DNA from: an uncultured Flavobacteriaceae bacterium
GTDB lineage: Bacteria; Bacteroidota; Bacteroidia; Flavobacteriales; Flavobacteriaceae
Assembly: GCA_947501845.1 (NCBI GenBank)
Contig: CANMXP010000007.1
Location: 151,381-215,380 of the forward strand
Direction: 5' to 3'
DNA length: 64,000 bases
A program made the position numbers and the translations under genes. Shown here piece by piece: positions 22,007-49,415 of this stretch (position 1 is the first letter of the stretch; every line of letters begins with the position of its first letter). The notes beneath the pieces were generated by a model. It was not told the origin of the DNA. It was given only the letters and a program-made list of their open reading frames with translations, and did no database searches.

Positions 22007-22236
22007 TTTTGTTTGTTTTTAGGTTCTGTATAATCAACTGTTCTTATTTTCTTTTAAGGAACAAGGTTTAAAATCTCTTCTTTTAATTAGTGCTACAAAA
22101 CAAAGCTAAATATTATGCTTTTACTACCCTATTTTCCGTGAAAATAGTAGAAACCTTTGCTTATCTGTACTATTTTTTAATAAAATATTGATTTTCGTTT
22201 TTTATCTTGTTACGTGATTTTAATCTCTTTTCAGCG

Positions 22237-23205: not shown

Positions 23206-23214
23206 TCTTACTAT

Positions 23215-23685: not shown

Positions 23686-23689
23686 ACCT

Positions 23690-24556: not shown

Positions 24557-24558
24557 CT

Positions 24559-25901: not shown

Positions 25902-25963
25902 ATTGCGTTTATTTTACGCAAATGTATAAAGAGAAAATGAGATAACAAAATTTTGTGTAATAT

Positions 25964-27739: not shown

Positions 27740-29806
27740 ATGGAACACATCACGCAGTTTATTGGAATAGGAGTTGGACTTATTCTGTTCTTAATCATAA
27801 TTTATTTTGCAATTATTGCACTATTCTATAAAAAAGTCCCGCAAGGAGAAGCCTTAGTAAGGACAGGATTTAAGGGTACTAAAGTCGCTACAGATAAAGG
27901 GCTGTACGTAGTACCTGTATTTCATAAAGTAGAAATTATGGATATTTCGGTAAAGAAAATCCAAATTGAGCGTATTGGAGACAACGGATTATTATGTAAG
28001 GATAATATGCGCGCCGATATTAAAGTGGCATTTTTCGTAAGAGTAAACAATGAGGTAGATTTCATAAAAAAAGTAGCACAAACAGTAGGTTGCGAAAGAG
28101 CTTCAGATATTTCTACATTAGAAGAACTTTTTGAAGCCAAATTCTCTGAAGCTTTAAAAACCGTTGGGAAAAAGTTTCAATTTGTAGAGCTTTACGAAGC
28201 ACGTAGAGAATTTCGTGATGAAATTGTTGATATTATTGGTACAGATCTTAATGGTTATACCTTAGAAGATTGCGCCATAGATTACTTAGAGCAAACACCT
28301 GTTCAATTTTTAAAGTCTGATAACATTCTAGATGCAGAGGGGATTAAAAAAATCACAGAACTCACTGCTGAACAAAACATGAAAGCTAATCTTATTAAAC
28401 GCGATGAAGAAAAAGTAATTCGCAAGCAAGATGTTGAAGCGCGTGAAGCCATTTTAGAGTTGGATAAACAATTAGCAGAAAAAGAAGAACAACAAAGAAG
28501 AGAGATCTCTAACATAAAAGCCCGTGAAGAAGCAGAGATCTTAAAAGTAGCTCAAGAAGAACGTTTAAAATCTGAAAGTGCCAGAATTTCTACTGAAGAA
28601 AAAGTAAAAGTGGCTGAAGAAAATATGGAGCGTCAAATTATAGTTGCAGCAAAAAACAAGCAACGTACAGATGCTGTAGAATCTGAAAGAGTTGAAAAAG
28701 ACAGAATGCTAGAAGCTACAGAAAGAGAACGTATCGTTACTTTAGCTCAAATTGAAAAAGAAAAAGTAGTAGAAGTTGAAAAGAAAAGTATTCAAGATGT
28801 GATTCGAGATAGAGTGATGCTTGAAAAAGGCGTGGTAGAAGAGCAAGAAAACATGAAAGACATCGAAGCATTTAAGACTGCCGACAGAGAAAAGCAAGTA
28901 AAGATTACAATTGCAGAAGCTAACGCACAAGAATCATTAATTAAAACCATAAAAGCTGCGGAAGCCGAAAAAGAAGCATCTAAACAAAAAGCAGAAGAAA
29001 TTAATATTGAAGCGGAAGCGAAGAAACAAGCGAGCCAAAAAGAAGCGGAAGCTAGAAAAACACTAGCCGAAGCCAAAGCTAAAGAAGAAGCAACTATTGG
29101 TATGTCTGAAGCGCAAGTAATGCATGCAAAAGCAGATGCCAACGAACGTCAAGGTCTGGTAGAAGCAACTATTATAGAAGAAAAAGCTAAAGCAGAAGCT
29201 GCTGGAATTTTAGCTAAAGCAGAAGCTGTGAAAGAAGAAGGTATAGCTCAAGCTGAAGTCATTAAGGAGCAAGCCTTAGCAGAAGCTACTGGTATAGAAG
29301 AAAAAGCTAACGCTATGAAAAAATTAGATGGTGTTGGTAAAGAACATGAAGAATTTAAATTACGTTTAGACAAAGAATTACAAGTAGATCTAGCCGAAAT
29401 TAATATTCAAAAAGAAATTGCAGATGCGCAAGCTGAAGTTATTGGTGAAGCATTAAAAGCAGCAAATATTGATATTGTTGGTGGTGAGACAATGTTCTTC
29501 GATCAAATTATTGGACAAATCACAAAATCTAAAGGTGTAGACCGTCTGGTAAATCATTCAGATAATATTACCCAAGTAAAAGATGCTATTCTAGGAAGCG
29601 ATGATGTTAAAGGCAATCTATTAGATAAAATCAAAGAGTTTGCAACCAAATATGGTATCTCTTCAGAAGACATTAAAAACTTAACAGTTGCTAATTTGTT
29701 AATGGATTTAAAATCTAAAACATCAAATACCAGCGAAGAAACCCTATTTAATAACCTAGCGAACCTTGCCAAGGGCTTAGGTTTATCTGATAAAAAGTTA
29801 GGGTAA
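27740..29806 (+). CDS. Flotillin-like SPFH/band-7 protein (YqiK/FloA-like) with long Ala/Glu/Lys-rich coiled-coil
   Basis: 688 aa. N-terminal TM anchor. SPFH core (…GEALVRTGFKGTKV…YVVPVFHKVEIMDISVKKIQI…). Long EA-repeat region. Confidence 0.8.
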   Translation: MEHITQFIGIGVGLILFLIIIYFAIIALFYKKVPQGEALVRTGFKGTKVATDKGLYVVPVFHKVEIMDISVKKIQIERIGDNGLLCKDNMRADIKVAFFVRVNNEVDFIKKVAQTVGCERASDISTLEELFEAKFSEALKTVGKKFQFVELYEARREFRDEIVDIIGTDLNGYTLEDCAIDYLEQTPVQFLKSDNILDAEGIKKITELTAEQNMKANLIKRDEEKVIRKQDVEAREAILELDKQLAEKEEQQRREISNIKAREEAEILKVAQEERLKSESARISTEEKVKVAEENMERQIIVAAKNKQRTDAVESERVEKDRMLEATERERIVTLAQIEKEKVVEVEKKSIQDVIRDRVMLEKGVVEEQENMKDIEAFKTADREKQVKITIAEANAQESLIKTIKAAEAEKEASKQKAEEINIEAEAKKQASQKEAEARKTLAEAKAKEEATIGMSEAQVMHAKADANERQGLVEATIIEEKAKAEAAGILAKAEAVKEEGIAQAEVIKEQALAEATGIEEKANAMKKLDGVGKEHEEFKLRLDKELQVDLAEINIQKEIADAQAEVIGEALKAANIDIVGGETMFFDQIIGQITKSKGVDRLVNHSDNITQVKDAILGSDDVKGNLLDKIKEFATKYGISSEDIKNLTVANLLMDLKSKTSNTSEETLFNNLANLAKGLGLSDKKLG

Positions 29807-29867: not shown

Positions 29868-30308
29868 GTGTCCAAATTAAAAATCATTTTCATTGTAATC
29901 ATTTCAGCAATGGTATTCTGTTTAACTGATAATATATTCTCAAGAGAAGAATATCTAAAGGGAATTATTATTAAAAAAGGGTACAGAAACAAAATGATTA
30001 TTACAGCGACAGGAAATAATACCAGTAGAGGACACAGTGTTGTTAATACTCCAACTTATGATCCTAATGGGTATATAATATTTATTAAAGATAAAAATGG
30101 TGATCAAATAGTGATAAGGAGTAACCGGGATACTTATACCAACGCTTACAAAGGTGATTCTATAAAATACCGTTTATCAAAAGGCTTTTTTTCTAGAAAA
30201 ATATGGAAATCTTCTATAGTTGAAGTCATGCCAAATTTTGAAAACAGAAAACAATTTTTAAATAAAAAACTATCACCACTAGAAAAATTTCTTAAAAACA
30301 ACAGATGA
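29868..30308 (+). CDS. Hypothetical small membrane-anchored protein (146 aa)
   Basis: ORF with N-terminal hydrophobic segment. Confidence 0.35.
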   Translation: MSKLKIIFIVIISAMVFCLTDNIFSREEYLKGIIIKKGYRNKMIITATGNNTSRGHSVVNTPTYDPNGYIIFIKDKNGDQIVIRSNRDTYTNAYKGDSIKYRLSKGFFSRKIWKSSIVEVMPNFENRKQFLNKKLSPLEKFLKNNR

Positions 30309-30326: not shown

Positions 30327-33300
30327 ATGATAAGTAATTCCATAAAAGAAAAAACTATGGAACAAACCAATTCAGAGAATAACATACAGTTAGACGGTGG
30401 CACCTATGAGATTATTCAAGGGCGTTTACAAAAACAAAAAAGTGAACTACTTTCAAGATTGTCTCAATTAAACGATGCTCGCAAAAGTGTTTTCGGCAAT
30501 GTTGAAACTAAACTTATTGCCAATAATCGCATCAATACCGAAAACAACTGTATAGCCAGAGATATTGTTACCATTGGAGATAAGTGTTTATTTGGTTATA
30601 ATGTACACTTTGGACTTCGAACAGGTATCACACTTGCAGATGTGTTTAGCATTTACACTTACGATAGTGATCACTTCACCATTCAGCCCTTAGATATACT
30701 AGAAGATGCTATTTTTATAAACGATTTCACCAATCTTTATAAATACTATAGAAATACCATTTTTTCAAAATTTGCCATAGTTGGTAATTATTTGCACATG
30801 GTATTTCAATTAAGCGATAGTATCACAGATATAAAAACATTTAAATGGTTAATTAACGACAATAAACTTGAATATGTAGACAATCGTAGTGAACACGAAT
30901 TTAAATTCCCTAATCAGCATGAATTCAATTGGGTGGAACCTACCAGAGACCATCATGTGTATGGCGAGCACCCTCACATATCTATTCTAGATAAAGTATT
31001 TGTAGAAACTATTGGTGGGGATTTAACTATTAAAATAGAAGATAATACAGAGGATGGTAAAGGTATTTATAGTGAGCCCGTAGAGCATCCAGATCAAACC
31101 TTAGATGACGGACAGTATAAATATGCAGACTTAGGTAATTTAATTACTTTAGAAATAAAGCCTTTTCAGGAAACTCCAAGGTATTTTGTTTATAATCATA
31201 AAATACAAGAGGTAAAAAAAATACCAAGTATTGCCGATGCTTGTGTATTATTACCAGATGATCAAGGTATTATTTTTGCAGATGGCTATTATTTACAATC
31301 TGGAGATTTTAAATTATTTGATAATGGTATTTCCAACGTTAAATTCAAAAAGAAAGTAAGTTCTCCTAACGGTGAAGATTTTCTTTATGTATTTTATGAA
31401 AGTGAAAGAGGCTTGTATGTACTCATGTCTTACAATGTTATAGAACAAGAGGTAAAGACACCTATTATCTGTAACGGGTATACCATTTTAAATGATGGTG
31501 AATTATGTTACTTTAAAACCGAAGACGAACAGACAAAACACCATGTTATTCAAATATGGCAAACCCCATTTTTAAAAGGTGATGTTATTCCTTCAGAACA
31601 TACCGATACGCTTTTATATAAAATAGGAAATAAAGACATCGTAAAGGCCATGGCAGAATGTCAAGCCTTAATTACCTTACTAAATAAAGAAGACAGTTAC
31701 GATGGACTGTATGATGATATTGCTAAATCCTCAAGCGATGTTTTAAATAGTTATTACTGGATAACAGAGCCTGACACTTTTCTGATTAATGAGCCTCTAA
31801 CAGAATTAAACGAGGCCGCTAATGCAGCTATAGATGAATTTGAAAAAGTAGTTCAACTGCGTAAAACTGCTGCAAATATTACCAAAGACACGCAGACCAA
31901 AGCAAATGGTATTTTTGGAAAAATTAAAAGCAGCACTTTTAAGTCTATTGAAGACTTCGTTTTTGTACTATCACAATTAAGAACACTAAGAGGCGAAGTT
32001 ATAGGTTTAAACGATATTCGGTACATAGATACATCATTTATTAGCGGATTAGAAGAAGAGATAGTCCTTCAAAATGATAAAATTTCTGAGCGTTGTGTGC
32101 AATTTTTATTGAACGACAAAGCGCTTATACCTTATCACAACCGTGTTGCTGAAAAAGAAACAGCATTAGACGAGATTAAAAAAGTTATTGACGCTAAAAA
32201 ATTAGAAGAAGATGTCAATCAAATCGCTACCGATTTGGAAATGCTCATAGATATTGTTTCAAACTTAGAAATAGAAGACGCTTCGCATTCTACAAAAATT
32301 ATTGATAACATTTCATTAATTTTTGCCACCATTAATCAACTTAAAGCAGGATTAAAAAACAAATTAAAAGCTTTAGGAGAAAAGGAAGCTTCAGCTGAAT
32401 TTGCTGCGCAGCTAAAATTAGTAGATCAAAGCATTATTAATTATTTAGATATTGCTACCACACCAGAAAAAACAGACGAACTACTAAATAAAGTGTCAGT
32501 ACATTTAGAAGACTTAGAAGGTCGGTTTGCAGATTTTGAAGATTTCATCTCTCAAATTATTGAAAAAAGAGAAGAAGTATATAATGCTTTTGAAACTAGG
32601 AAAAATAGCCTTGTTGAAGCTAGAAATAAAAAAGCGATAACCTTAGAGGCCGCAGCCAACAGAATCTTAAAAGGGGTAACAAAAAAAGCCTTAAGCTTTA
32701 AAACTACGGTTGAGATTAACGGTTATTTTGCTTCTGATTTAATGATTAATAAGCTTCGTGATATTATAACGAGGCTTAAAGATTTAGATGATGCTGGAAA
32801 GGCTGAAGCTATTGAAACAGGACTTAAAGTTGCTAAAGAAGATGCTGTTAGAAAACTAAAAGACACTCAAGATTTATATGAAGATGGCGAAAACATTATT
32901 AAACTAGGCAAACACAAATTTGGAGTTAACAAACAGCCTTTAGACCTTACTATTGTTTATAAAGACGAAACCTTAAAATATCATCTAACAGGTACCGATT
33001 TTTATCAAACTATTGAAGACAAAACGCTAATTACATCTCAAAAATATTGGAATCAAGAATTAATTTCAGAAAATCAACATATATACAGGTCCTCTTATTT
33101 GGCCTATAAAATATTCACAAATGCATCGCTTGATATAAATCAACTTAACGAAACAGAGTTACTCGAGCTTGTAAAAAATGAAAGTAGTAAAAACTATTCT
33201 GAAGGTTATATAAAAGGGGTTCATGATGAAGATGCAACCCAAATTTTAAAGGCTTTAATTAACAAACATCACGATTTGGGGCTATTGCGTTATACACCTA

Positions 33301-35249
33301 TAGTTAGAGCCTACGCACAGTTCTTTTGGAACGCTTTAGACAATGAAACTAAAGCGATCTGGAATCAAAAAATAAAAGCTTCAGGCGAAGTTTTATCAGC
33401 TTTTCCTAACAGTAAAGAATACCAAGTTATTATAGATGCATTAAATCATGAATTAAGCACATGTATATTTCAAAACATCATTTCTAAACATGATGAAGAT
33501 GGCATAGATACGCTTGAATTTGAAACGGCCTCATATTTATTTGATGAGTTACAAAGCGACAACACCTTTTGTATTAGCAAAACGGCTCAAGAATTATTTA
33601 ACAACTTTACAAAGGCTTTAGAAAGCAAAAACGTATTTACAGCTTTTAAAATGTCTCTTAAAACCGCTCTTGGTGATAAAAATATAACTACCGATGCCGT
33701 ACAATTAGCTGTGCAATGGGTGAGTTCTTTTGTAAAATCTCAAGCTCCAGAAAATATAGAATACATTTATGAAGTTGTTGCGCTAATACTATTTAAAAGT
33801 GAGGCCAACTCAAATATCATTCAGGTAAGCCCAACCTTAGTTATCCAAAATTTAAAAGGAAGTCACACTTCAATTAACGAGGGGAATTTTGAGTTCAATT
33901 ATCATCATTTTATAAATCAGCTACAACACTTCTATACCATTGAAGTACCCGCATTTAACGAGTATCGTGAAGCTAAACATTCTGTAACCGAAGCCCTGAA
34001 GGAACAACTAAAACTTGAAGAGTTTAAACCAAGAGTGTTATCATCTTTTGTAAGAAACAAACTTATAGACAAAGTCTATTTGCCATTATTTGGAGATAAT
34101 TTATCCAAACAATTAGGAAGTATAGGCGATAACAAACGTACCGACCGTATGGGGATGCTATTACTTATATCACCTCCTGGTTATGGTAAAACCACTCTAA
34201 TGGAATACATGGCAAATCGTTTAGGACTTATATTTATGAAAATAAATGGTCCAGCCATAGGTCATGAAGTCACTTCTGTAGATCCATTAACAGCAAATAA
34301 CTCTGCAGCTCGAGAAGAACTGAACAAGCTTAATTTAGCTTTTGAAATGGGTAATAACGTCATGCTGTATTTGGACGATATACAACATTGTAACCCAGAG
34401 TTTTTACAAAAATTTATATCGCTTGCTGATGGCACTCGTAAAATAGAAGGTGTTTATAATGGTAAACCTAAAACTTACGATTTGCGCAGCAAAAAGTTTT
34501 GTGTAATAATGGCAGGTAATCCATATACCGAAAGTGGGGAGAAATTTCAAATACCAGATATGTTAGCTAACCGTGCTGATATTTATAATTTAGGTGATAT
34601 TATTGGAGATACTGCAGATTTATTTAAGCTTAGCTTAATTGAAAATGCATTAACCTCAAACCCTATTCTACACCAATTAAGCAGTAAATATTTTGAAGAC
34701 ATCTATGAATTAATAGAAGTTGTAGAATCTGGAAATCGAGACAACTTAGCACTTAAAGGCAACCATACAAAACAAGAAATTCAAGATTATTTAGCAGTAT
34801 TAGACAAGGTTGTTACCATTCGTAATACCGTATTAAAGGTAAACGAAACCTATATTAAATCGGCTGCAATGGATGACAATTATCGTATTGAACCTTCTTT
34901 TAAACTACAGGGGTCTTATCGTGATATGAACAAATTGGTAGCCAAGGTAGTTCCCATTATGAACAATAAAGAACTACAAACTCTTTTATTGTCGCATTAT
35001 GAAAATGAATCGCAAACACTCACAAGTGCTGCCGAGGCCAATTTATTAAAATACAAAGAGCTTACACATACTATCGATGAAACCGAAACTGAGCGCTGGA
35101 AAACCATTAAAGATACGTTTGTAAAAAACAATAAGTTAAAAGGTTTCGGCGATCAAAATGAAATGACACAAGTGCTTGCACAAATGATGCAATTTAGCGA
35201 ACATTTAGAAGGCATACAGAATGTACTAAAGAGTGGTTTGGATAGGTAA
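30327..35249 (+). CDS. Very large (1640 aa) protein with C-terminal AAA+ ATPase (AAA_5/MoxR-dynein-like) domain
   Basis: Walker A LLISPPGYGKTTLMEY. Walker B-like VMLYLDDIQHCN. Arginine-finger region NRADIYNLGDI. Long coiled-coil/alpha-helical N-terminal two thirds without recognisable motifs. The true start may be the Met at 30357 (MEQTNSENN). Confidence 0.6.
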   Translation: MISNSIKEKTMEQTNSENNIQLDGGTYEIIQGRLQKQKSELLSRLSQLNDARKSVFGNVETKLIANNRINTENNCIARDIVTIGDKCLFGYNVHFGLRTGITLADVFSIYTYDSDHFTIQPLDILEDAIFINDFTNLYKYYRNTIFSKFAIVGNYLHMVFQLSDSITDIKTFKWLINDNKLEYVDNRSEHEFKFPNQHEFNWVEPTRDHHVYGEHPHISILDKVFVETIGGDLTIKIEDNTEDGKGIYSEPVEHPDQTLDDGQYKYADLGNLITLEIKPFQETPRYFVYNHKIQEVKKIPSIADACVLLPDDQGIIFADGYYLQSGDFKLFDNGISNVKFKKKVSSPNGEDFLYVFYESERGLYVLMSYNVIEQEVKTPIICNGYTILNDGELCYFKTEDEQTKHHVIQIWQTPFLKGDVIPSEHTDTLLYKIGNKDIVKAMAECQALITLLNKEDSYDGLYDDIAKSSSDVLNSYYWITEPDTFLINEPLTELNEAANAAIDEFEKVVQLRKTAANITKDTQTKANGIFGKIKSSTFKSIEDFVFVLSQLRTLRGEVIGLNDIRYIDTSFISGLEEEIVLQNDKISERCVQFLLNDKALIPYHNRVAEKETALDEIKKVIDAKKLEEDVNQIATDLEMLIDIVSNLEIEDASHSTKIIDNISLIFATINQLKAGLKNKLKALGEKEASAEFAAQLKLVDQSIINYLDIATTPEKTDELLNKVSVHLEDLEGRFADFEDFISQIIEKREEVYNAFETRKNSLVEARNKKAITLEAAANRILKGVTKKALSFKTTVEINGYFASDLMINKLRDIITRLKDLDDAGKAEAIETGLKVAKEDAVRKLKDTQDLYEDGENIIKLGKHKFGVNKQPLDLTIVYKDETLKYHLTGTDFYQTIEDKTLITSQKYWNQELISENQHIYRSSYLAYKIFTNASLDINQLNETELLELVKNESSKNYSEGYIKGVHDEDATQILKALINKHHDLGLLRYTPIVRAYAQFFWNALDNETKAIWNQKIKASGEVLSAFPNSKEYQVIIDALNHELSTCIFQNIISKHDEDGIDTLEFETASYLFDELQSDNTFCISKTAQELFNNFTKALESKNVFTAFKMSLKTALGDKNITTDAVQLAVQWVSSFVKSQAPENIEYIYEVVALILFKSEANSNIIQVSPTLVIQNLKGSHTSINEGNFEFNYHHFINQLQHFYTIEVPAFNEYREAKHSVTEALKEQLKLEEFKPRVLSSFVRNKLIDKVYLPLFGDNLSKQLGSIGDNKRTDRMGMLLLISPPGYGKTTLMEYMANRLGLIFMKINGPAIGHEVTSVDPLTANNSAAREELNKLNLAFEMGNNVMLYLDDIQHCNPEFLQKFISLADGTRKIEGVYNGKPKTYDLRSKKFCVIMAGNPYTESGEKFQIPDMLANRADIYNLGDIIGDTADLFKLSLIENALTSNPILHQLSSKYFEDIYELIEVVESGNRDNLALKGNHTKQEIQDYLAVLDKVVTIRNTVLKVNETYIKSAAMDDNYRIEPSFKLQGSYRDMNKLVAKVVPIMNNKELQTLLLSHYENESQTLTSAAEANLLKYKELTHTIDETETERWKTIKDTFVKNNKLKGFGDQNEMTQVLAQMMQFSEHLEGIQNVLKSGLDR

Positions 35250-37241: not shown

Positions 37242-38342
37242 TTACTTATTCACTGAGAAAATGTCCTTTAACTGCTCAATAACGTTACCGTTACCAGCAA
37301 CAGTAATCTCACCAATTTTATCAGCAATTTTCTCTACGTATTCCATCTCTTTTAATTTAAACAACATACTGTTGTCTTCCATTAATTTTGCAGTATTTAA
37401 CAAGCTTCGTGTAGACGCAGTTTCTTCTCGTCTTGTTACCACATTTGCTTGCGCTTTTTTGTGAGCAATCAATACTTGGTTCATGATATCTTTCATATCA
37501 CCTGGTAAGATCACATCTCTAATACCAGTATGTAATACGTTTACACCCAATTTACCAGCTTGTGCTTTTACATCGTTTAAAACAGCTTGAGCAATAGTTT
37601 CTTTTTGCTCTAACAATTCATCTAATGTATAAGTACCAACAAAGGCTCTCAATGCTAATTGTAAGACAATATATAATTGCTTTTCGTAATCTTTATTGTG
37701 CATTAATGCAGTCTCAATGTTTGCGACTTTATATTGCGCATAAAAGTTAATACGAACTGTTGCCTTATCTTTAGTTAACAATTCTTGACCAGCAACTTCT
37801 AATTGTAACTGACGTAAATCGGCTTTTGCTATTTTAATCGTTTGGTCATTTCTCCAGAAGTGGTATGTACCATGTTCTAAAGTTTTTACAAACTTATCGT
37901 TTACAATCATAACCGCTTTTTCGTAAGCAGCTACTTCAAATACTCTGATGTATCTGCTTAATTCTGGCTTATTGTAGATTGCTTTTTCGATAGCTTCTGT
38001 AATCTCGATTTTGCTTAAATCTGCAGTTACAAATTTATAGTCAATCAAGCTATTCCAGTACGTGTAACGTCCTGCAGCTAATACCTGCTTAAAGTTACCG
38101 TTTTCGTATACCAAAACAATCTCATTATCCTTAACCTCAACTACGGTTAACATATCTGCCAAAGCTTGATCTTTAAGTAAGATCTCTAATGCTTTTGGCG
38201 CGTTAAATGGCTGAGACAAGCTATATTTTACAACTTTCGCTCTAAAGCCTATCCAATGCTTACCCTCGGTAATAACACGTGTGTAATTACCATTTTTAAA
38301 CACTAAACCTACCATACCTGCATGAATTCTTACTCTTTTCAT
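37242..38342 (-). CDS. SPFH/band-7 (stomatin/prohibitin-like) protein
   Basis: 366 aa. SPFH core (…ATVRINFYAQYKV…DELLEQKETIAQAV…) plus C-terminal coiled-coil (…HKKAQANVVTRREETASTRSLLNTAKLMEDN…). Confidence 0.75.
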   Translation of the reverse strand: MKRVRIHAGMVGLVFKNGNYTRVITEGKHWIGFRAKVVKYSLSQPFNAPKALEILLKDQALADMLTVVEVKDNEIVLVYENGNFKQVLAAGRYTYWNSLIDYKFVTADLSKIEITEAIEKAIYNKPELSRYIRVFEVAAYEKAVMIVNDKFVKTLEHGTYHFWRNDQTIKIAKADLRQLQLEVAGQELLTKDKATVRINFYAQYKVANIETALMHNKDYEKQLYIVLQLALRAFVGTYTLDELLEQKETIAQAVLNDVKAQAGKLGVNVLHTGIRDVILPGDMKDIMNQVLIAHKKAQANVVTRREETASTRSLLNTAKLMEDNSMLFKLKEMEYVEKIADKIGEITVAGNGNVIEQLKDIFSVNK

Positions 38343-38740
38343 GATTTCTAATTTTTTTGTTCTGATGTTTTTGTTTTTTTGTCAGAACGGTTAAACATTT
38401 ATAATAGAACCTCTTATTTAAAGGTAGCTATTCATTTGTAAAACAAAGCGAAGGAAAACCATCTTTCTAACTACGGAAACACAACCAATTTAAAGTGTTT
38501 TTAAGTATTGTTTCTTAGAAGATTAATCAATTAAGACATGCAAAAATTCACAATATCTTTTTTTGAAAAATGAGTCTTTAAAAGAACACTCAAAACATCT
38601 AAAAATGCGAGTGCATTTCAAGGTGTTGCCTGGACTGCTTAAACAACAAGTTGTTTTCGCGAGCTTTAATTCACTTTGTTTTTGTCGTTTAGAGTGAGAC
38701 ACACTTGAGACCTATTTTTAAAAGTTGGCCTTCTTTTCTA

Positions 38741-38805
38741 AAAATGGATAAAAGTCCACATCCTACATTATGAGTGTAGTGCTCTACCTACTGAGCTATG
38801 TAACC
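38741..38805 (-). ncRNA. tRNA-like element: intact tRNA-Met(CAU)-type 5' two-thirds (acceptor 5' strand, D-arm, anticodon arm CUACA-CUCAUAA-UGUAG) but degenerate T-arm and no matching acceptor 3' strand
   Basis: Reverse complement reads GGTTACATAGCTCAGTAGGTAGAGCACTACACTCATAATGTAGGATGTGGAC... Confidence 0.35.
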
Positions 38806-38810
38806 TAAAA

Positions 38811-38877
38811 TGGTGGTCACAACAGGATTCGAACCTGTGCAAAAATCTATTGCTCTAACCGCTGAGCTACTTCCCCA
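38811..38877 (-). ncRNA. tRNA-like element lacking an anticodon arm: acceptor-5'/D-arm (GGGGAAGTAGCTCAGCGGTTAGAGC) joined by 14 nt to a T-arm (CAGGTTCGAATCCTG), ending in genomically encoded ACCA. Candidate tRNA mimic (Y-RNA/YrlA-like)
   Basis: Reverse complement of 38811-38877. The complementary CTTCCCC lies 20 nt upstream in the transcript (38894-38900), adjacent to another T-arm. Confidence 0.35.
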
Positions 38878-40300
38878 TGTTTTCCGATATAATTAGAGGG
38901 GAAGATGGGAGTCGAACCCATGACACATAGATGTCGGTTATTGTTTAACCAAATAACCAGTTGGTACCAAGCCAAGTTGAACATAAAAACCTCATACGAA
39001 ACCGTAAGGATTTATACAATAGTGCTATATCGAAACACGTAACAAGACTTACTTGATATTTTTTCTGTAAAAACAGATATTTTGTACCTCTTACCAGATT
39101 CGAACTGGCACTTTCAGATTCCTCTGAACAGATAGGCTCTAAATGCGCTTCCCTACTTTACATCCTGCGTATTTCGGTGCTTCTGCAAAACCTAGTCATT
39201 GGCGGGCGCACCACCAACCACATCATCCTATCACTCCACGGTTACGTTAATCTTTTTCCGCAGCTCTTCCCTTTAAGCTAAAGAGGTATTTTATATTTAA
39301 AAAAAGCGTTCTGAGAATACCTTCGCTTATAGACAAGCTTTCCTAGTATTATAGCCGTAGCCTTTCTCTAGTTTTCCACATACTTCTCATTGCTTAGAGA
39401 AATATGTACTTGTCTGATGCCTAATTACATTACAGCTGTTCAGCGACTTAGACTTGGCTTGCATAGTGGTTATTTACCACGCTTTGCAACTACAAGGGTT
39501 GGCTCCCTCACCATTAGTAGGCGTCCTCTATTTGAGGCGGCCTATTAGAATGTTCACTACACAGTAAAGGCTTGCGACCTCTACCGTCCCATATATTGCA
39601 ATGGGTTTAGGCAACTACTAGCTGCTGTAATGTTCGAAGTCTTTTGCGATTTGCTCACCGACTGAGCTATCCTTAAATTGGTTTATAGGATGGGACTTGA
39701 ACCCAAATAGTTTTTCGACCTAGGAAAAGGGCTTCGAAAATGGCTTCGTAGATTTTTGCCCACAAAATACCAACCTTTTCCTTGTGTGCCTCCCAACACA
39801 CGACATTTTAAGTTACCGAACAATTTCTCATCGGGTCACTCTAATATTGCAATACGCTCCGCTAGGCTGGATAACCTAAACGTAACCCATTACTACAACT
39901 TTCCCTGTTGATGTCTCCATCGCAAGCCTAATTCCTGTTGGCTATAAGCTCTTATTTACTTTAGCGGTTGCCCCTAGCAAATAATAACTTATGTGAGTTG
40001 CTTGCTTACCTGTACTGCCTTCTAATGAAAGTAGTCTCCACTTGCTGTGTCCGCAAATAGATTTATCCTTGTTGCCAAGTTTATCTAAGGACGATAAGCC
40101 GCCCCATCACTCAATAACCGAGATTAAAGAATGATGATTTTTTATACTAATGAAACTAATATTTAGCTTCAATTTATGTCAATGAACATTTTTTATTAAG
40201 CTCTGCCAGTTTCTAACGTCTGGCAGAGCGCTACTTTTAAAAAGTCTAATTCCAAAAGACTTTTTAGATTCCCAATTTCTCGGGAATGACAGCTACCTGT

Positions 40301-40356
40301 CAATTACTCTGCAAATATTTTGTGATATTGCGCAATGATTTTGCGTAGTTAAAAAT
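40301..40356. promoter_or_regulatory. Copy of a shared ~55-bp cis-element (ctctgcaaatatttt-N5-attgcgcaat-N-attttgcgtagtt-aaaa) immediately upstream (minus orientation) of the ncRNA region
   Basis: Near-identical copy at 44511-44565. Related copy at 49358-49415. Confidence 0.5.
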
Positions 40357-40868
40357 TATTTTAATTTTCTAAATGTTAAACTCATTCTTCCGTTTTCAGT
40401 ATTTGATTTTGTTATAGCATGTTGCCACTCGTTTTGAATCTCATTAGCCATATAAATTAATGAACCAGAAACAAGATTAAAGTCAACAATTATCTCTCGA
40501 TTTTTAACATTTCTAAATCGAAGTGTTCTAGTCTCACCCACAGAAATAATCACTACACCTGTATCATTTTCTAGAATGTCTATTTGATCAGAATGAAATC
40601 CCATTGATGAGTTTCCATCTTCATAATAGTTTATCAAACAATTATTAGGTCTAAAACCAAGAGTACTATTAATGGATTCAATAATGTCTTTTAAGTCAGA
40701 TGTAAAAGGCTGAAAAGGATATTCCATTTGAGAATAATCATAAGCCCTTCCAAAACTAGCTGTTTTCCTTGCCGACATTCTTTCATCCCAAATAATATTA
40801 TTTTTTAATATTTCAAACAATGACTCATGATTATCTAAAAAGTTTTCTCTATAAATAATTCCTTCCAT
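40356..40868 (-). CDS. alkB: AlkB-family Fe(II)/2-oxoglutarate-dependent dioxygenase (nucleic-acid demethylase)
   Basis: 170 aa. HxD (MGFHSDQ), distal His (EWQHAI) and RxSxTFR (RMSLTFR) signature. Confidence 0.72.
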   Translation of the reverse strand: MEGIIYRENFLDNHESLFEILKNNIIWDERMSARKTASFGRAYDYSQMEYPFQPFTSDLKDIIESINSTLGFRPNNCLINYYEDGNSSMGFHSDQIDILENDTGVVIISVGETRTLRFRNVKNREIIVDFNLVSGSLIYMANEIQNEWQHAITKSNTENGRMSLTFRKLK

Positions 40869-41466: not shown

Positions 41467-41500
41467 GATTACTCATTTTTTTAGTTAAACATTTATATTG

Positions 41501-41573
41501 TGGAACAAACTGGACTCGAACCAGTATCTTCGGAGCTTCAATCCGACGCATAGACCTGTTTTGCTATTGTTCC
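41501..41573 (-). tRNA. tRNA-Phe (GAA)
   Basis: Manual fold of the reverse complement GGAACAATAGCAAAACAGGTCTATGCGTCGGATTGAAGCTCCGAAGATACTGGTTCGAGTCCAGTTTGTTCCA. Perfect 7-bp acceptor, anticodon loop UUGAAGC, T-loop TTCGAGT. CCA not encoded. Confidence 0.8.
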
Positions 41574-41578
41574 TTTTT

Positions 41579-41651
41579 GGGTGACTTTGGGATTCGAACC
41601 CTATTTTCCTCATTCACAGTGAGGTGTTTTACCACATAAACTAAAGCCACC
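41579..41651 (-). tRNA. tRNA-His (GUG)
   Basis: Anticodon arm CCUCA-CUGUGAA-UGAGG. Discriminator C. T-arm AGGGTTCGAATCCCA. Confidence 0.75.
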
Positions 41652-41659
41652 ATAGCCTG

Positions 41660-41730
41660 TTAATCCGATAGGACTCGAACCTATACCTCAGGAGTCAAAT
41701 TCCTGTATGCTGCCTTTACATCACGGATTA
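41660..41730 (-). tRNA. tRNA-Gln (UUG)
   Basis: Acceptor TAATCCG/CGGATTA. Anticodon arm CAGGA-AUUUGAC-UCCUG. T-arm ATAGGTTCGAGTCCTAT. Confidence 0.7.
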
Positions 41731-41735
41731 ATTTG

Positions 41736-41860
41736 TAGGTCTAATAGGATTTGAACCCATACCACAAGGGTCGAAATATTATATATTCACGAATTCCTAT
41801 TTAATGAAATGGTTATACAATGAGCTAAACCTTGTATGCTATCCGTTACACCATAGACCT
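41736..41860 (-). tRNA. Atypical ~125-nt tRNA-like gene: canonical acceptor (AGGTCTA/TAGACCT), D-arm and T-arm, UAG at the anticodon position, but a ~53-nt AT-rich insertion inside/after the anticodon loop (enclosed by helix CAAGG…CCTTG)
   Basis: Manual fold. Paralogous to 42420-42541, including the insertion. Confidence 0.45.
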
Positions 41861-41866
41861 ATTTTG

Positions 41867-41940
41867 TACTCCCCCTTGGATTCGAACCAAGACTTAACAG
41901 GGCTTAAACCTGATGCCTCTTCCATTTGGGCTAGTGGAGC
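41867..41940 (-). tRNA. 74-nt class-I (short variable arm) tRNA-like gene with anticodon UAA (Leu-type anticodon on a non-Leu-type body), discriminator A
   Basis: Anticodon arm (U)CAGG-UUUAAGC-CCUG(U). Acceptor GCTCCAC/GGGGAGT with one mismatch. Confidence 0.5.
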
Positions 41941-41945
41941 AATTG

Positions 41946-42019
41946 TACAGGGAAAGAGACTCGAACTCTCAAATTTCAGATTCTAAATCTGACGCCTATA
42001 CCTATTCGGCTACCCCTGC
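41946..42019 (-). tRNA. 74-nt class-I tRNA-like gene with anticodon UAG (Leu-type anticodon, short variable arm), discriminator A
   Basis: Anticodon arm UCAGA-UUUAGAA-UCUGA perfect. Acceptor GCAGGGG/TCCCTGT with two G·U. Confidence 0.5.
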
Positions 42020-42024
42020 ATGTG

Positions 42025-42098
42025 TTGAGATGTCAGAATTCGAACCTGAACCCTTCGCCTTATGAGAGCGATGCTCTACCAAATTAAGCTACATCTCA
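42025..42098 (-). tRNA. tRNA with CAU anticodon (elongator Met or lysidine-Ile2 type; U1-A72)
   Basis: TGAGATG-TAGCTTAATTTGGTAGAGCA-TCGCT-CTCATAA-GGCGA…CATCTCA-A. Confidence 0.75.
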
Positions 42099-42108
42099 CT
42101 ATGCCTTG

Positions 42109-42181
42109 TTGAGATATTAGGACTTGAACCTAAACCTATCATCGTATCAGGATGATGCTCTACCAATTAAGCTATATCTCA
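42109..42181 (-). tRNA. tRNA-Ile (GAU)
   Basis: TGAGATA…TCATC-CTGATAC-GATGA…TATCTCA-A. Confidence 0.78.
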
Positions 42182-42186
42182 ATATG

Positions 42187-42258
42187 TTGAGGCAATAGGA
42201 TTCGAACCTATGACTTTCACGATGTAAGCGTGACGCTCTTCCTCTGAGCTATACCTCA
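42187..42258 (-). tRNA. tRNA-Val (UAC)
   Basis: TGAGGTA…TCACG-CTTACAT-CGTGA…TGCCTCA-A. Confidence 0.75.
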
Positions 42259-42263
42259 ATTTG

Positions 42264-42335
42264 TACTCCGTAAGGGAATTGAACCCTTAATTCCACATAG
42301 AAAGTGTGGCGTCTTAGCCATTTGACCAACGGAGC
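42264..42335 (-). tRNA. tRNA-Glu (UUC)
   Basis: GCTCCGT…CCACA-CTTTCTA-TGTGG…ACGGAGT-A. Confidence 0.7.
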
Positions 42336-42340
42336 TATTG

Positions 42341-42412
42341 CGGTTCATACGAGAATCGAACTCGTATCTCCCGAGAGACAGTCGGGAAGGATAACCATTA
42401 CCCCAATGAACC
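42341..42412 (-). tRNA. tRNA-Asp (GUC), discriminator G
   Basis: GGTTCAT…CCCGA-CTGTCTC-TCGGG…ATGAACC-G. Confidence 0.75.
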
Positions 42413-42419
42413 AATTTTG

Positions 42420-42541
42420 TACATCTACTAAGATTCGAACTTAGACTTAGAGATTAGAAATGCTATGCATTCACAAACACCTTCATTTAAAATAAAATGA
42501 GTGAGCTAAATCTCTTGTGCTATCCCTTACACCATAGATGC
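42420..42541 (-). tRNA. Atypical ~122-nt tRNA-like gene, paralogue of 41736-41860: acceptor GCATCTA/TAGATGT, D-arm TGGTGTAAGGGATAGCA, loop start TTTAGCTCA (UAG), ~50-nt insertion closed by helix AGAGA…TCTCT, normal T-arm
   Basis: Manual fold. The insertions of the two paralogues align (…TTAAAT…GTGAAT…ATTTC…). Confidence 0.45.
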
Positions 42542-42547
42542 ATGTTG

Positions 42548-42630
42548 TGGAAGTGGTAGGACTCGAACCTACAAACTCATAAGAGACCAGATTTACAGTC
42601 TGGCGAGCCAACCAATTGCTCAACACTTCC
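42548..42630 (-). tRNA. tRNA-Tyr (GUA), class II with long variable arm
   Basis: GGAAGTG…CCAGA-CTGTAAA-TCTGG + 13-nt variable arm + GTAGGTTCGAGTCCTAC + CACTTCC-A. Confidence 0.78.
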
Positions 42631-42638
42631 TTTATTTG

Positions 42639-42711
42639 AGACAAGGATGAGATTCGAACTCATAAATAACGGATTTGCAATCAGACGCCTTAGCCATTCA
42701 GCCACCTTGTC
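42639..42711 (-). tRNA. tRNA-Cys (GCA)-like, discriminator U. The anticodon stem has two mismatches relative to a canonical Cys tRNA (UCUGA…UCCGU), so possibly a weakened/pseudo tRNA
   Basis: GACAAGG…TCTGA-TTGCAAA-TCCGT…CCTTGTC-T. Confidence 0.5.
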
Positions 42712-42715
42712 TTAG

Positions 42716-42787
42716 CTATATTGGAAGGATTCGAACCTACAACTTCAGACTTAACAGGTCTTTGCTCTACCTTTGAGCTACAATATC
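42716..42787 (-). tRNA. tRNA-Asn (GUU), discriminator G
   Basis: Anticodon loop CUGUUAA. T-arm GTAGGTTCGAATCCTTC. One G1·A72 mismatch in the acceptor. Confidence 0.65.
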
Positions 42788-42792
42788 ATTTG

Positions 42793-42880
42793 CGGAGAGT
42801 AGAGGAATCGAACCTCCACCGCCTCTGGTGCGGCCTTGTTTAGCAGACAAGTGCAACAAACCAATATTTGCCTACTCTCC
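42793..42880 (-). tRNA. tRNA-Ser (GCU), class II, discriminator G
   Basis: GGAGAGT…CTTGT-CTGCTAA-ACAAG + 16-nt variable stem-loop + GGAGGTTCGATTCCTCT + ACTCTCC-G. Confidence 0.78.
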
Positions 42881-42894
42881 ATTAATTACTTTCG

Positions 42895-42967
42895 TCTGAG
42901 AGACAGGATTCGAACCTGCAACCTCTCGCTTCCAAAGCGAGTAAACCAACCATCGTTATCCTCTCAG
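42895..42967 (-). tRNA. tRNA-Pro (UGG), C1-G72, discriminator A, G at position 8
   Basis: CTGAGAG…CTCGC-TTTGGAA-GCGAG…CTCTCAG-A. Confidence 0.65.
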
Positions 42968-42972
42968 TTTTG

Positions 42973-43115
42973 CGGAAGGAGTGGGAGTCGAACCCACACG
43001 AGTCATTAACTCCGAACACTTTTAACTCAAAGATTTCTATTCTGATAAACAGGATTCGTTGAATTCGTAAACACATTTCAAGAGTGTGGCCACCACTAAT
43101 TTGGCTTGTCCTTCC
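42973..43115 (-). tRNA. Atypical ~143-nt tRNA-like gene: acceptor GGAAGGA/TCCTTCC, discriminator G, apparent anticodon arm ACACU-CUUGAAA-UGUGU (UGA, Ser-type), T-arm GTGGGTTCGACTCCCAC, but ~75 nt between the anticodon stem and the T-stem (Ser variable arm plus ~55-nt AT-rich insertion)
   Basis: Manual fold of the reverse complement. Confidence 0.4.
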
Positions 43116-43121
43116 GTTTTG

Positions 43122-43194
43122 TTGACGCGGTGGGTCTCGAACCCACGACCTCGGCGTTAAAAGCACCTTGCTCTGCCAACTGAGCTACGCGTCA
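43122..43194 (-). tRNA. tRNA-Lys (UUU), discriminator A
   Basis: TGACGCG-TAGCTCAGTTGGCAGAGCA-AGGTG-CTTTTAA-CGCCG…GTGGGTTCGAGACCCAC-CGCGTCA-A. Confidence 0.75.
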
Positions 43195-44492: not shown

Positions 44493-44510
44493 AATGTTTA
44501 TTTAAATTAA

Positions 44511-44565
44511 TTACTCTGCAAATATTTTACACTATTGCGCAATATTTTTGCGTAGTAAAAATCAT
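44511..44565. promoter_or_regulatory. Copy of the shared ~55-bp cis-element (ctctgcaaatatttt-N5-attgcgcaat-atttttgcgtagt-aaaa) directly upstream of the HEPN-like gene
   Basis: ~90% identical to 40301-40356. Confidence 0.5.
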
Positions 44566-45101
44566 TTCCTTTTCTTCTTTGATTTTTTAGATGATTTCTT
44601 CTTTTTATCCAATTTCATCTTCTTTTCTATACGCCTTTGTTCATCTACCATAAAATCATAATAATGATCATTATAGCAGTGCCTTTTTGCTTCTTTTAAG
44701 TATTTTAAGCAGGTTTTGTATTTTCCTTGCGTTTCCTCTATATAAGAAGACAACCAATTTATTTCGGCTTTACTTATCGTTTCTATAGTTTGTGAAAAGT
44801 CTACTAGTTTTTTTGCTCTATCTATCTTGTTATTCCAAATTAGGTATTTGATGTACATTGGATAAACATCTTCGTAACTGGTATCTATAGCAATAACTTT
44901 ATCAAAACATTCAAATGCTTTCTCTGGCATCGATAAATATTTTGCATAGATTTCTCCTAATAAGCAAAGTGACGCACAGTGGTTTTCATCGTACGAAAGT
45001 GCATAGTTTAAAGATTCACAAACTTCTTCCCAGTCACTACAAAAACCACTTGTTGCAGCTTTTGCTTTTAAATAATAACTGTCTGCTAATGTTAATCCCA
45101 T
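44562..45101 (-). CDS. TPR-like helical-repeat protein with lysine-rich C-terminal tail
   Basis: 179 aa. Tail [17 protein letters not shown]. Overlaps prfH by 10 nt (operon). Confidence 0.35.
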
Positions 45102-45787
45102 TTTTGTTGTCTTAAATTATTCTTTAATTCTTGTCGTTTAGACTTGTAATTTTTATTTATTTTTTGTGTTTTAAAATCAGTTCCAATAAAAACACGTACT
45201 GGATTCCCTCTTTCTAAATTGAGGTGGTTTCCCCATTGGTTCTGAACTGATTTTTTTAATTGCTCATTATTATATTCAGCTACTTTTTCTTGTAACCGTT
45301 TTATAGCTATCTTTTTATTTTGGTGCTGAGACCTGCTGTCCATTACCAAAACCTGTATGCCTGTTTTTGTATGTGTTGCTCTAATGGCTGAGCTTACTTT
45401 ATTAACATGTTGTCCTCCTGGCCCTGAACTTCTAATAGCTTGAAATTTTATATCGCTATCTATTAAAAGAGTCCCTTTCTCAGCTTCAATTTCATAAATA
45501 CCAACAAACCAATTTTTTCGCTTACGAAATTTTCTGAAAGATGATTTTCCTATCCATTGTACTGTCCCCAACCAATTGCTTAAAAAAGACTCCAACGCTT
45601 TTCCTTGTAATTGAATAGTTGCAGATTGTAACGTTCCGTTTTCTGTACCAGATTCTCTTTGTAATAGCGTATATTCTATTTTCGCTTTTTTTATCTCTTC
45701 AATGAAATACTTTAAAACTTGAGCTACAACCCAGCAACATTCAATAGGTCCTCTTCCTGATGTTATTTGTATTGTTTTTGTTTTCAT
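45092..45787 (-). CDS. prfH: PrfH (peptide-chain-release-factor homologue H), the partner of RtcB2 in ribosome/rRNA-repair modules
   Basis: 231 aa. GGQ motif [15 protein letters not shown]. Short RF-like architecture lacking a codon-recognition domain. Start overlaps the rtcB stop. Confidence 0.8.
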
Positions 45788-47178
45788 TATTTATCCATTC
45801 TAACAATTTTTGGTGTAAATGTTCCTAACACTTCTACCAATTCTTGTTGATTATTCATTACTTTTTTAATGTTCTTATAAGCCATTGGTGCTTCATCTAC
45901 GCCACCACCAATAAGCGTAACATCATGCATTTTTAATTGCTGCTTTATATCACTTTTTGTGAATTTCTCTTTGCACTTTCTTCGTGAATGCAAACGTCCT
46001 GCTCCATGAGATGCCGAGTTTAAGCTTTCACTATTACCCAAGCCTTGTACTATATATCCAGGAGCAGTCATCGATCCTGGGATAATACCCAACTCGCCTT
46101 TATTGGCTGGTGTTGCTCCTTTACGATGTACAATACATTCTTTATCGTTTACCATTTCTTTCCAAGCAAAATTGTGGTGATTTTCAATCTTAACTACAGC
46201 TTTAGAACCCAGTAACTTTCCTATGCGATAATGAATGTCGTCATGACATGCCTTAGCGTAATCACCAGCTAGATTCATAGCTAGCCAATATTCTTGACCA
46301 TCATGCGTATTTAAATCCAGCCATGCTAAATGCTGAACATTTTTAGGTAATGGGCATTGTTTACTAGCTAAATAGGTATAATGTTTTGCAATGTTAGCTC
46401 CTAATCCTCTTGAGCCACTATGTGACAATACACCTATGTAATCACCAGCTTTAAGCTGCCATTGATTATCCTCATCCGTTATAGAAACCACTCCAAACTC
46501 CACAAAATGATTGCCTCCTCCCGATGTTCCCAATTGCTTAAATGCTTTTATCTTTAACCGTTTTAGTAAAGGAATATCGTCAAACTCAGCTCTTGCAAAA
46601 ATCTCATGGTCGTGTTTTTTATCATGTGTTTCATACATCCCAAATTTGGTGTGATTTGATAAAATATTCTCCAACTGATGTTGCTTCCCCTTTAAATAAG
46701 AAGCTTTCATTGGGTAAATGGTTAAACACATTCTACACCCAATATCTACCCCAACACCATAAGGAATTACTGCATTATCAGTTGCTAAAACAGCGCCTAT
46801 TGGCAACCCATAACCTGAATGTGCATCTGGCATTAAAGCTCCTGATACAGCTATTGGTAATTTTAAGGCATCGTATAATTGGTACTTTGCTTGTTCATCA
46901 ATCTCGTTTTCACCATAAATATTAAAAGGCACTCTTGTATTTTTAAGTTGATGAAATTTAACCTCAACTGGCTTTACCAAACCTTCAACTACTTTTCCCC
47001 AAATGGCATTACCTTGAAATTTTTCTGGGTTTTGTAATACGGCTTTCGCTTCTTCCAAAATGCGTTCTTTTTTTTCTCTTTTTCGGTATCTGTTTATTTG
47101 CCCTAAAGCAATATTGATACTATTATTTTTTGGGAACCCCAATTTTATTAGGTCTTTCCCTTTTAGTTTATTTCCCAT
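45787..47178 (-). CDS. rtcB: RtcB-family RNA 3'-phosphate/5'-OH ligase (RtcB2-type, paired with PrfH)
   Basis: 463 aa. [33 protein letters not shown] catalytic motifs. Confidence 0.85.
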
Positions 47179-47888: not shown

Positions 47889-49274
<1,386 letters not shown>

Positions 49275-49357: not shown

Positions 49358-49415
49358 AGACAAATATTTTAAGTAACTGCGCAATTATTTTGCACAGTTA
49401 ATTAATTTTTACAAT
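49358..49415. promoter_or_regulatory. Third copy of the shared cis-element (caaatatttt-aagta-actgcgcaat-tattttgcacagtt-aattaa), ~90 bp upstream of the divergent rtcB
   Basis: Alignment with 40301-40356 and 44511-44565. Confidence 0.45.

Follow-up and report, generated by a model that had tools for sequence, protein, structure and literature searches.

YrlA, a bacterial Y RNA, carries a tRNA-like domain with the topology T-arm, 7-base-pair (bp) acceptor hairpin and D-arm, and it acts in trans although it is encoded inside its operon (PMC4201824). In vivo, RNase P cleaves the YrlA of Mycobacterium smegmatis, and CCA is added to this RNA (PMC4201824). A "band 7-associated tRNA", for short b7a-tRNA, near RtcB is a 2016 prediction of Burroughs and Aravind, which a 2018 preprint quotes, calling the RNA "strongly resembling an authentic tRNA" and experimentally unvalidated (bioRxiv 10.1101/312249). 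Published descriptions of GOLLD RNA include its large size, a less conserved 5' domain and a tRNA-array neighborhood (PMC12286853; PMC6582537), and its linkers may hold tRNAs (PMC12286853). GOLLD assembles into a 14-mer nanocage, and in the structure obtained by cryo-electron microscopy (cryo-EM) the linker faces the cage interior. Permuted tRNA genes are known from Cyanidioschyzon merolae; there, the half with the T-arm and the acceptor 3' strand, the 3' half, lies upstream of the 5' half. Here we analyze 64,000 nucleotides (nt) from an uncultured Flavobacteriaceae bacterium (contig CANMXP010000007.1, positions 151,381 to 215,380; hereafter, the window), in which 2 kb at positions 38343-40355 are free of longer open reading frames (ORFs). 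These 2 kb are a co-oriented set of minus-strand structured RNA genes within a chromosomal RNA-repair island. The set comprises a GOLLD RNA, a tRNA-shaped RNA that we call module X, and an RNA linked to an SPFH/Band-7 gene, the core RNA, with circularly permuted tRNA-like domains. GOLLD itself is an already known kind of RNA; the Band-7-linked core RNA is conserved and apparently uncatalogued.

The original prediction for this DNA, made from its letters and a list of ORFs, had proposed that the region encodes structured tRNA mimics, possibly Y-RNA-like, linked to an RtcB system. Indeed, ORFs of at least 60 amino acids (aa) are absent from both strands of 38343-40355, the longest having 59 aa. 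The region lies between the gene of an AlkB-like 2OG-Fe(II) oxygenase on one side and the SPFH/Band-7 gene on the other, and it is part of an island with RtcB, PrfH and RlaP genes, which bears out the proposed link to RtcB. For comparison, 80 loci (L001-L080) were fetched around Band-7 homologues; across these related loci the island is kept in one bacterial family. BLAST against the 80 loci splits the region into five pieces, namely a cis element, a hairpin block, GOLLD, module X and the core RNA. All T-arm and D-arm motifs listed in the original prediction are present, including T-arms at 38825, 38908, ~39097 and 39693 and a D-arm at ~39660. At 38825, 38908 and 39693 the T-loop motif GGTTCRANTCC is exact, and at ~39097 there is a near-match; the window holds 21 T-loop-type motifs, compared with 4.5 expected by chance. 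ARAGORN called no tRNA inside the ORF-free region. Two weak Rfam tRNA matches on the minus strand, at 38745-38805 (36 bits) and 38814-38876 (32.5 bits), stem from D-, T- and anticodon-arm parts of the RNA described below.

The core RNA spans 39057 to ~38630 on the minus strand (~430 nt), its 3' end being placed on the reading of the downstream block as the Band-7 promoter. By BLAST, the piece from 39063 to ~38680 was found in 78 of the 80 loci, upstream of Band-7. Metagenome and viral contigs were searched with nothing but a degenerate motif taken from hairpin P4 and the junction region of the 5' domain. This search yielded 53 metagenome contigs with the core RNA, mostly marine judging by the contig names, and none among the viral contigs. 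In the metagenome loci, RtcB and PrfH are often encoded upstream, and RtcB sometimes downstream. The core RNA is without an Rfam family.

The center of the core RNA consists of two circularly permuted tRNA-like domains, which were analyzed in an alignment of 69 sequences (A2). Domain 1 (38846-38931, minus strand) runs in the order closing strand TCTAT, V region GTGTC, T-arm, CTTCCCC, a 21-nt loop, GGGGAAG, TA, D-arm, A and ATAGA. TCTAT and ATAGA form an anticodon-like closing stem, while CTTCCCC and GGGGAAG form a closed acceptor hairpin of 7 bp. Pairing in A2 amounts to 98.6% for the closing stem, 99.4% for the T-arm, 91.0% for the acceptor hairpin (7/7 pairs with compensatory changes) and 97.5% for the D-arm. 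The complementarity of CTTCCCC and GGGGAAG, which the original prediction had pointed out, is thus real; it is kept by compensatory changes in the 69 genomes and was the correct clue to the fold. Domain 2 (38763-38838, minus strand) has the order T-arm, TGTGACC, ACCATTTTA, GGTTACA, TA, D-arm, A and an anticodon arm, CTACA-CUCAUAA-TGTAG, with the anticodon CAU. Its acceptor hairpin is paired to 92.9% (6/6 pairs compensatory) and its T-arm to 100%. Taken together, the two domains have 94.6% of alignment cells paired, compared with 38-49% if the partners are slid, and 31 of 36 pairs are compensatory, among them all 13 acceptor-hairpin pairs. With their acceptor hairpins closed, the domains could be aminoacylated only if these hairpins were cut.

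The original prediction had read this part differently, as a tRNA-Met(CAU)-like piece with a degenerate 3' part and, beside it, an element in which an acceptor 5' strand and D-arm are joined directly to a T-arm with an encoded ACCA end. Both overlap permuted domain 2. The second element proved to be mis-phased, because the acceptor strands pair with their neighbors as closed hairpins. Since its own ends, GGGGAAG and TGTGACC, are only 40% paired, which is the chance level, we rejected it as an ordinary or anticodon-less tRNA.

The anticodon arm of domain 2 (38763-38779, minus strand, and its homologues) has a 5-bp stem and a 7-nt loop, with U33 and R37 kept in 64 of the 69 genomes. Its anticodon varies by species (CAU, UUU, GUU, UAG, UCG, UUG, UAA, CAA, GAA, AGG, AGA), and the type of the domain 2 D-arm switches along with it, between a TAGCTCAG form and a Leu-like TGGCGGAA form. 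The canonical loop favors recognition of the anticodon loop by some partner. In five loci (L022, L030, L043, L070 and L079) a third permuted tRNA-like domain follows domain 2 (at about 9450-9650), and in nine others (L023, L039, L055, L060, L064, L066, L067, L069 and L074) a local anticodon hairpin takes the place of the split closing stem in domain 1. Hence, the number and the type of the modules vary between species.

The permuted domains are preceded by a 5' domain and a pseudoknot, both analyzed in an alignment of 78 sequences (A1). The 5' domain (38967-39057, minus strand) is a three-way junction made up of P1 (TCAAG TAAGT / ACTTG-G-CTTGG; 10 bp and one bulge), hairpin P4 (GTGTT-TCGATAT-AGCAC) and hairpin P2/P3. 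Its helices are 92.9-99.4% paired, 16 of 28 pairs show compensatory changes, and the junction bases are near-invariant across genera. The H-type pseudoknot (38936-38965, minus strand) is composed of stem S1, TACCA/TGGT(T) (GGTT/AACC in most species), and stem S2, GGTTA(TT)/(AA)TAACC; both sides changed in 4/4 pairs of S1 and 4/5 pairs of S2. For the 5' domain and pseudoknot together, 93.6% of the cells are paired, compared with 30-44% when the partners are slid by 1-3 columns. Furthermore, 24 of 37 pairs changed on both sides, the covariation score is 0.352 compared with 0.06-0.10, and the observed values were reached in none of 500 shuffles. The 3' part (38630-38759, minus strand; alignment of 24 genomes) begins with a mini-hairpin resembling an anticodon stem-loop, GTGGA-CTTTTA-TCCAT (38759-38744), which is followed by the hairpins GGCCA..CTTTTAAAA..TAGGTC (38730-38709) and AGTG-TGTCT-CACT (38705-38693) and by further helices. 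By eye and with no formal count, the stems at 38759-38693 vary on both sides among the 24 genomes. Comparative alignment, suggested as a check in the original prediction, thus uncovered a conserved, covarying secondary structure (A1, 78 sequences; A2, 69 sequences), and with compensatory changes in 55 of 73 tested pairs the proposed structured tRNA mimics are borne out.

Upstream of module X and the core RNA lies GOLLD. The original prediction had named GOLLD only among the large RNA models to be scanned for, and an Rfam scan indeed detected it. The match to RF02032 at 39305-39782 (minus strand) covers model positions 1-416, the full model, with 133.1 bits (E=2.1e-36), below the gathering score of 150. 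At gathering thresholds the scan returned tRNA matches only, and GOLLD surfaced only in the scan by E value. The low score is due to divergence of the whole subgroup and not to truncation: homologues in four other loci (L051, L008, L044 and L020) reach 117-136 bits over the full model, all of them below the gathering score, so the flavobacterial subgroup is missed as a group by annotation at gathering thresholds. The complete RNA (39301-40171, minus strand; ~870 nt) consists of a variable 5' domain (40171-39783) and a conserved 3' domain (39782-39305) and makes up 43% of the ORF-free region. Its edges were set by clean presence or absence in comparison with the closest relatives, L080 and L001, both of which are without it. 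GOLLD is an optional cassette, found in 13 of the 80 loci. It lies near tRNA genes, with the 16-tRNA array 1.3 kb upstream in the window and tRNA genes directly upstream in L051 and L020. A literature search found no paper that names GOLLD together with RtcB.

The linker of this GOLLD contains a permuted tRNA-like unit as well (39653-39705, minus strand; alignment of 14 GOLLD linkers). It consists of a T-arm (TGGG/CCCA), a closed acceptor hairpin (TCCT(A)TAA-ACCAAT-TTAAGGA) and a D-arm. In the alignment, the T-arm and D-arm are conserved and the hairpin between them varies on both strands, as judged by eye with no formal count. An anticodon-like hairpin with a 5-bp stem and a 7-nt loop is added after the unit in 8 of 13 relatives and is lost in this genome.

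Between GOLLD and the core RNA, module X (39084-39289, minus strand; RNAalifold, 22 genomes) has the shape of a tRNA, with an acceptor stem, a D-arm, an extra hairpin, an anticodon-like stem, a long variable arm and a T-arm at ~39097. Instead of an anticodon loop it has a conserved insert of ~90 nt, parts of which are invariant. Among the 22 genomes, 18 of the 47 pairs predicted by RNAalifold show compensatory changes; the anticodon-like stem, for example, changes from GATAGG/CCTATC to GATTGG/CCAATC. Module X occurs in ~22 of the 80 loci, lies upstream of GOLLD in L032 and L041, and had no Rfam family match in the E-value scan. Its design is shared by three tRNA-shaped genes that we found in gaps of the tRNA array (41735-41860, 42419-42541 and 42966-43115, all on the minus strand) and that ARAGORN and Rfam missed; two RtcB ligase genes are nearby. 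All three possess a D-arm, a T-arm and an acceptor stem of 7 bp. Two of them carry inserts of 50-60 nt, both beginning with TTTAGCTCA, within an anticodon-like stem of 6-7 bp, and the third has ~70 nt before the T-arm.

The host DNA is a marine Flavobacteriaceae chromosome, and its Band-7 protein is 95% identical to that of the closest species representative, Flavivirga amylovorans. On the minus strand the island begins with RtcB (47889-49271), a second RtcB (45787-47178), a PrfH-like protein with an RF-1 domain (45092-45787) and two ORFs without a Pfam match above the curated cut-off. These are followed by the array of 16 canonical tRNA genes (41500-43194), an RNaseH-like gene, the AlkB-like 2OG-Fe(II) oxygenase (40356-40868; 170 aa; Pfam 2OG-FeII_Oxy_2) and the ORF-free region. 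Directly 3' of the latter lies an SPFH/Band-7–RlaP–RlaP operon, in which the SPFH/Band-7 protein (37242-38342; 366 aa; Pfam Band_7) precedes RlaP and an RlaP-like protein. Among the 38 scanned ORFs of at least 100 aa in the window, Pfam revealed no phage-type domain. BLAST of the region against GenBank phages gave a single match, an 80-nt tRNA-like stretch in T4-like phages, and no similar phage.

The gene of a 1640-aa DUF3686/DUF7902/AAA protein (30327-35249, plus strand) runs toward the RlaP genes and is preceded, on its own strand, by ORFs of 146 aa (29868-30308), 688 aa (27740-29806) and 249 aa (26941-27690), all without a Pfam match. This gene and its three upstream ORFs may be a further part of the island. 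Farther away, positions 17820-26656 hold a cluster of genes related to NAD and ADP-ribose, which encode NAMPT-like and adenylosuccinate-synthetase-like proteins, an ADP-ribosylglycohydrolase, two Macro-domain proteins, a metallo-beta-lactamase-fold protein, a PRPP-synthetase-like protein and an NrtR regulator. The island is also flanked by genes for a WYL/WCX regulator (51113-52129, plus strand), a DUF4132/DUF7737 protein (60234-62759, plus strand) and an RraB-like RNase regulator (63102-63578, plus strand).

We consider it fairly probable that the battery of GOLLD, module X and the Band-7-linked core RNA belongs to the RNA-repair island of marine Flavobacteriaceae, and that the core RNA partners the repair machinery. 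The RNAs and an upstream tRNA or tRNA-like gene would be transcribed jointly into one precursor or a few, from which tRNA-processing enzymes would release the RNAs. The core RNA would then be the cognate RNA partner of the SPFH/Band-7–RlaP–RtcB machinery, and its non-aminoacylatable tRNA-shaped surfaces would recruit or organize the enzymes that heal cleaved tRNAs. RlaP extends the 3' ends of damaged tRNAs by 1-2 nt (PMC12776372). By analogy, the core RNA would most likely offer tRNA-shaped handles to the Band-7, RlaP and RtcB proteins, as the tRNA-like domain of YrlA serves Rsr/Ro60. GOLLD, with a like permuted unit in its linker, might be an accessory module of the same tRNA-centered system. 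Alternatively, the core RNA could serve as a decoy or sensor for anticodon-targeting toxins.

Several points weigh against this proposal. We infer the functional roles of the RNAs from gene linkage and shape, and it is equally conceivable that the core RNA acts in cis, as the leader of the Band-7 operon. A scan of the region for sigma-70 promoters and terminators returned none that could be assigned, with a tool that does not cover Bacteroidota promoters. A pure scaffold role leaves the species-specific anticodons of domain 2 unexplained, and the core system does not require GOLLD, which most related loci lack. Finally, the core RNA is most likely the predicted b7a-tRNA, an identity that we presume from the description of the latter as quoted in the preprint.

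As a cis-regulatory leader of the Band-7–RlaP operon, the core RNA would sense the state of the enzymes for processing or repair of tRNA, or that of damaged tRNA, by its tRNA-like modules and would thereby control the expression of the genes downstream. Although we regard such a leader as rather unlikely, it would agree well with the position of the core RNA, which is always upstream of Band-7 on the same strand and at a near-constant distance: in 44 of the 53 metagenome loci the Band-7 homologue follows 570-910 nt downstream, the other nine loci being cut by the contig end. Moreover, the terminator scan found no terminator between the core RNA and Band-7. However, in L003, L004, L012 and L015, P1 of the core RNA is preceded, at a distance of exactly 1 nt, by the end of a tRNA-Tyr gene, and in L002 module X abuts P1 directly, as would be the case for a processed stable RNA. 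This suggests that the core RNA is cotranscribed with the upstream tRNA or tRNA-like gene and freed by tRNA 3' processing. The conservation profile further points to a putative promoter and 5' untranslated region of the Band-7 operon at 38343-38629 (minus strand). Here, the conserved ACACCTTGAAAT at 38626-38615 and GATGTTTTG at 38599-38591 form a promoter-like block between the core RNA and Band-7, which is probably the Band-7 promoter (38626-38591) and would likewise speak against a leader. In addition, YrlA, the closest analogue, is trans-acting though encoded inside its operon (PMC4201824). In the Jejuia locus L020, Flavo-1 RNA (RF01705) was detected above the gathering score on both sides of Band-7 (9624-9701, plus strand, and 11132-11285, minus strand); the window gave no such match at the equivalent position.

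It is considerably less probable that the tRNA-like pieces are permuted or split tRNA genes, whose acceptor hairpins would be opened by RNase P and 3' trimming and whose other ends would be joined by RtcB. The products would be real tRNAs, split or recircularized, or tRNA decoys, with species-specific anticodons, and bacteria would have an equivalent of permuted tRNA genes that is linked to defense against anticodon nucleases. In line with this, the acceptor hairpins have 7 bp, ACCA follows the acceptor 3' strand in part of the family, the loops of domain 2 are canonical with U33 and R37 in 64/69 genomes, two RtcB ligases are encoded nearby, and the M. smegmatis YrlA is indeed cleaved by RNase P and supplied with CCA in vivo (PMC4201824). 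By sequence arithmetic, joining GATGT to the T-arm even yields a 76-nt tRNA-Met(CAU) from domain 2 in this window. Yet most acceptor loops are without CCA, and the linker after domain 1 measures 5-13 nt across species and hence provides no conserved anticodon loop; we rejected it as an anticodon loop awaiting ligation. The anticodon arm of domain 2 is usually followed by 3-8 nt and a conserved hairpin and not by a variable loop of 4-5 nt. Furthermore, no splicing-endonuclease gene or bulge-helix-bulge motif was seen, and these anticodons are already served by canonical tRNAs of the array. Full maturation of permuted tRNAs by RtcB is unlikely in view of the variable linker lengths.

That the core RNA is a genuine Y RNA (YrlA) with an Rsr/Ro60 partner, following the Y-RNA interpretation of the original prediction, seems very improbable. 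The Rfam model of YrlA (RF02553) does match the window partially, with 33.6 bits (38845-38929) and 26.7 bits, and it matches the relatives with 35-41 bits; the domain order is the same, with covariation, and the neighborhood contains RtcB. These matches, explained by the YrlA-type domain order, extend over the tRNA-like portion of the model alone (positions 23-88 or 30-81 out of 114) and reach about half of the gathering score of 69. A Ro-binding stem was not matched: the flanks of domain 1 lead into the pseudoknot and the second tRNA-like domain, and the 5' and 3' ends form no such stem. No TROVE/Ro60 domain was present among the 38 scanned ORFs of the 64-kb window, and the partner gene is SPFH/Band-7. 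Membership in the YrlA family was therefore rejected on account of the lacking TROVE domain and Ro-binding stem, while the Y-RNA-like domain order stands. Decaying pseudo-tRNA debris (GOLLD excepted), which might be expected beside a 16-gene tRNA array in a region with weak Rfam tRNA matches and no ARAGORN call, is refuted by the covariation counts and by conservation in 78 genomes of many genera and 53 metagenome contigs.

The AlkB stop codon is immediately followed by the shared cis element (40302-40355, minus strand), which includes the sequence AATATTTG and an inverted repeat, CGCAA-N5-TTGCG. The window has another copy with 87% identity at 44509-44561 (minus strand), immediately 3' of the stop of ORF 44562-45101, and a partial copy at ~49378-49393 (minus strand); in relatives there are several copies of this ~53-nt element per locus. 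The original prediction was thus right in calling it shared. Its role as a demonstrated promoter for the region was rejected, since two of the copies are directly 3' of stop codons and a terminator-like hairpin follows the copy at 40302-40355. Possibly it serves the nearby WYL regulator as an operator, or it acts as an RNA element between cistrons. Between it and GOLLD, direct sequence reading defined a hairpin block (40172-40301, minus strand) with GACAGGTAGCTGTC, ATTCCCGAGAAATTGGGAAT, the terminator-like AAAAAGTCT...AGACTTTTT, and GCTCTGCCAG...CTGGCAGAGC. Query positions 90-165 are kept in ~10 relatives, and in L080 query positions 2-184 run straight into position 1056 onward.

Compared with the known systems, the GOLLD RNA described here fits the published size, variable 5' domain and tRNA-array setting (PMC12286853; PMC6582537). 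It differs in being chromosomal, within an RtcB/PrfH/RlaP/Band-7 repair island with no phage genes seen in the window, and in having as its linker insert a tRNA-like unit that is circularly permuted and whose acceptor hairpin is closed. Cryo-EM has revealed the structure of GOLLD but not its function. In this genome and in a set of related marine Flavobacteriaceae, GOLLD is an optional cassette in an island that repairs the translation apparatus and includes RtcB twice, PrfH, RlaP twice, AlkB and a tRNA array. The island thus offers a testable context for GOLLD, namely tRNA damage and repair in culturable bacteria. Like the permuted tRNA genes of C. merolae, the core domains put the 3' half before the 5' half (acceptor 5' strand and D-arm), with complementary acceptor strands. 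Unlike those genes, they are embedded in a larger conserved RNA, and neither a bulge-helix-bulge motif nor evidence of circularization was found.

The core RNA resembles the b7a-tRNA, as far as the latter is quoted, in being a tRNA-like noncoding RNA beside a Band-7 gene in RtcB repair systems. In contrast to that description, the core unit measures ~430 nt and consists in part of permuted tRNA-like domains whose acceptor stems are closed. What was predicted in 2016, in the quoted words, merely as a "tRNA-like molecule" proves to be large and strongly covarying, with tandem permuted domains. The likeness to YrlA lies in core domain 1, which has the T-arm, acceptor-like hairpin and D-arm inside a closing stem, with covariation in all four helices. 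It extends to the tRNA-like sequences of the T-loop and D-loop and to the RtcB-type repair neighborhood. The 7-bp acceptor stems and the ACCA in some loops recall the M. smegmatis YrlA in particular. The core RNA, however, is ~4 times longer than YrlA and adds a 5' three-way junction, a pseudoknot, further 3' hairpins and a second permuted domain whose anticodon arm is complete. No Rsr/Ro60 gene was present among the scanned ORFs of the window, and the partner gene of the core RNA is SPFH/Band-7. By analogy, it is partly supported that the core RNA works like a Y-RNA-type tRNA mimic in an RtcB system, outside the YrlA family. The Band-7-linked RNA would then represent a second, Ro60-independent way to pair a tRNA mimic with an RNA-repair system.

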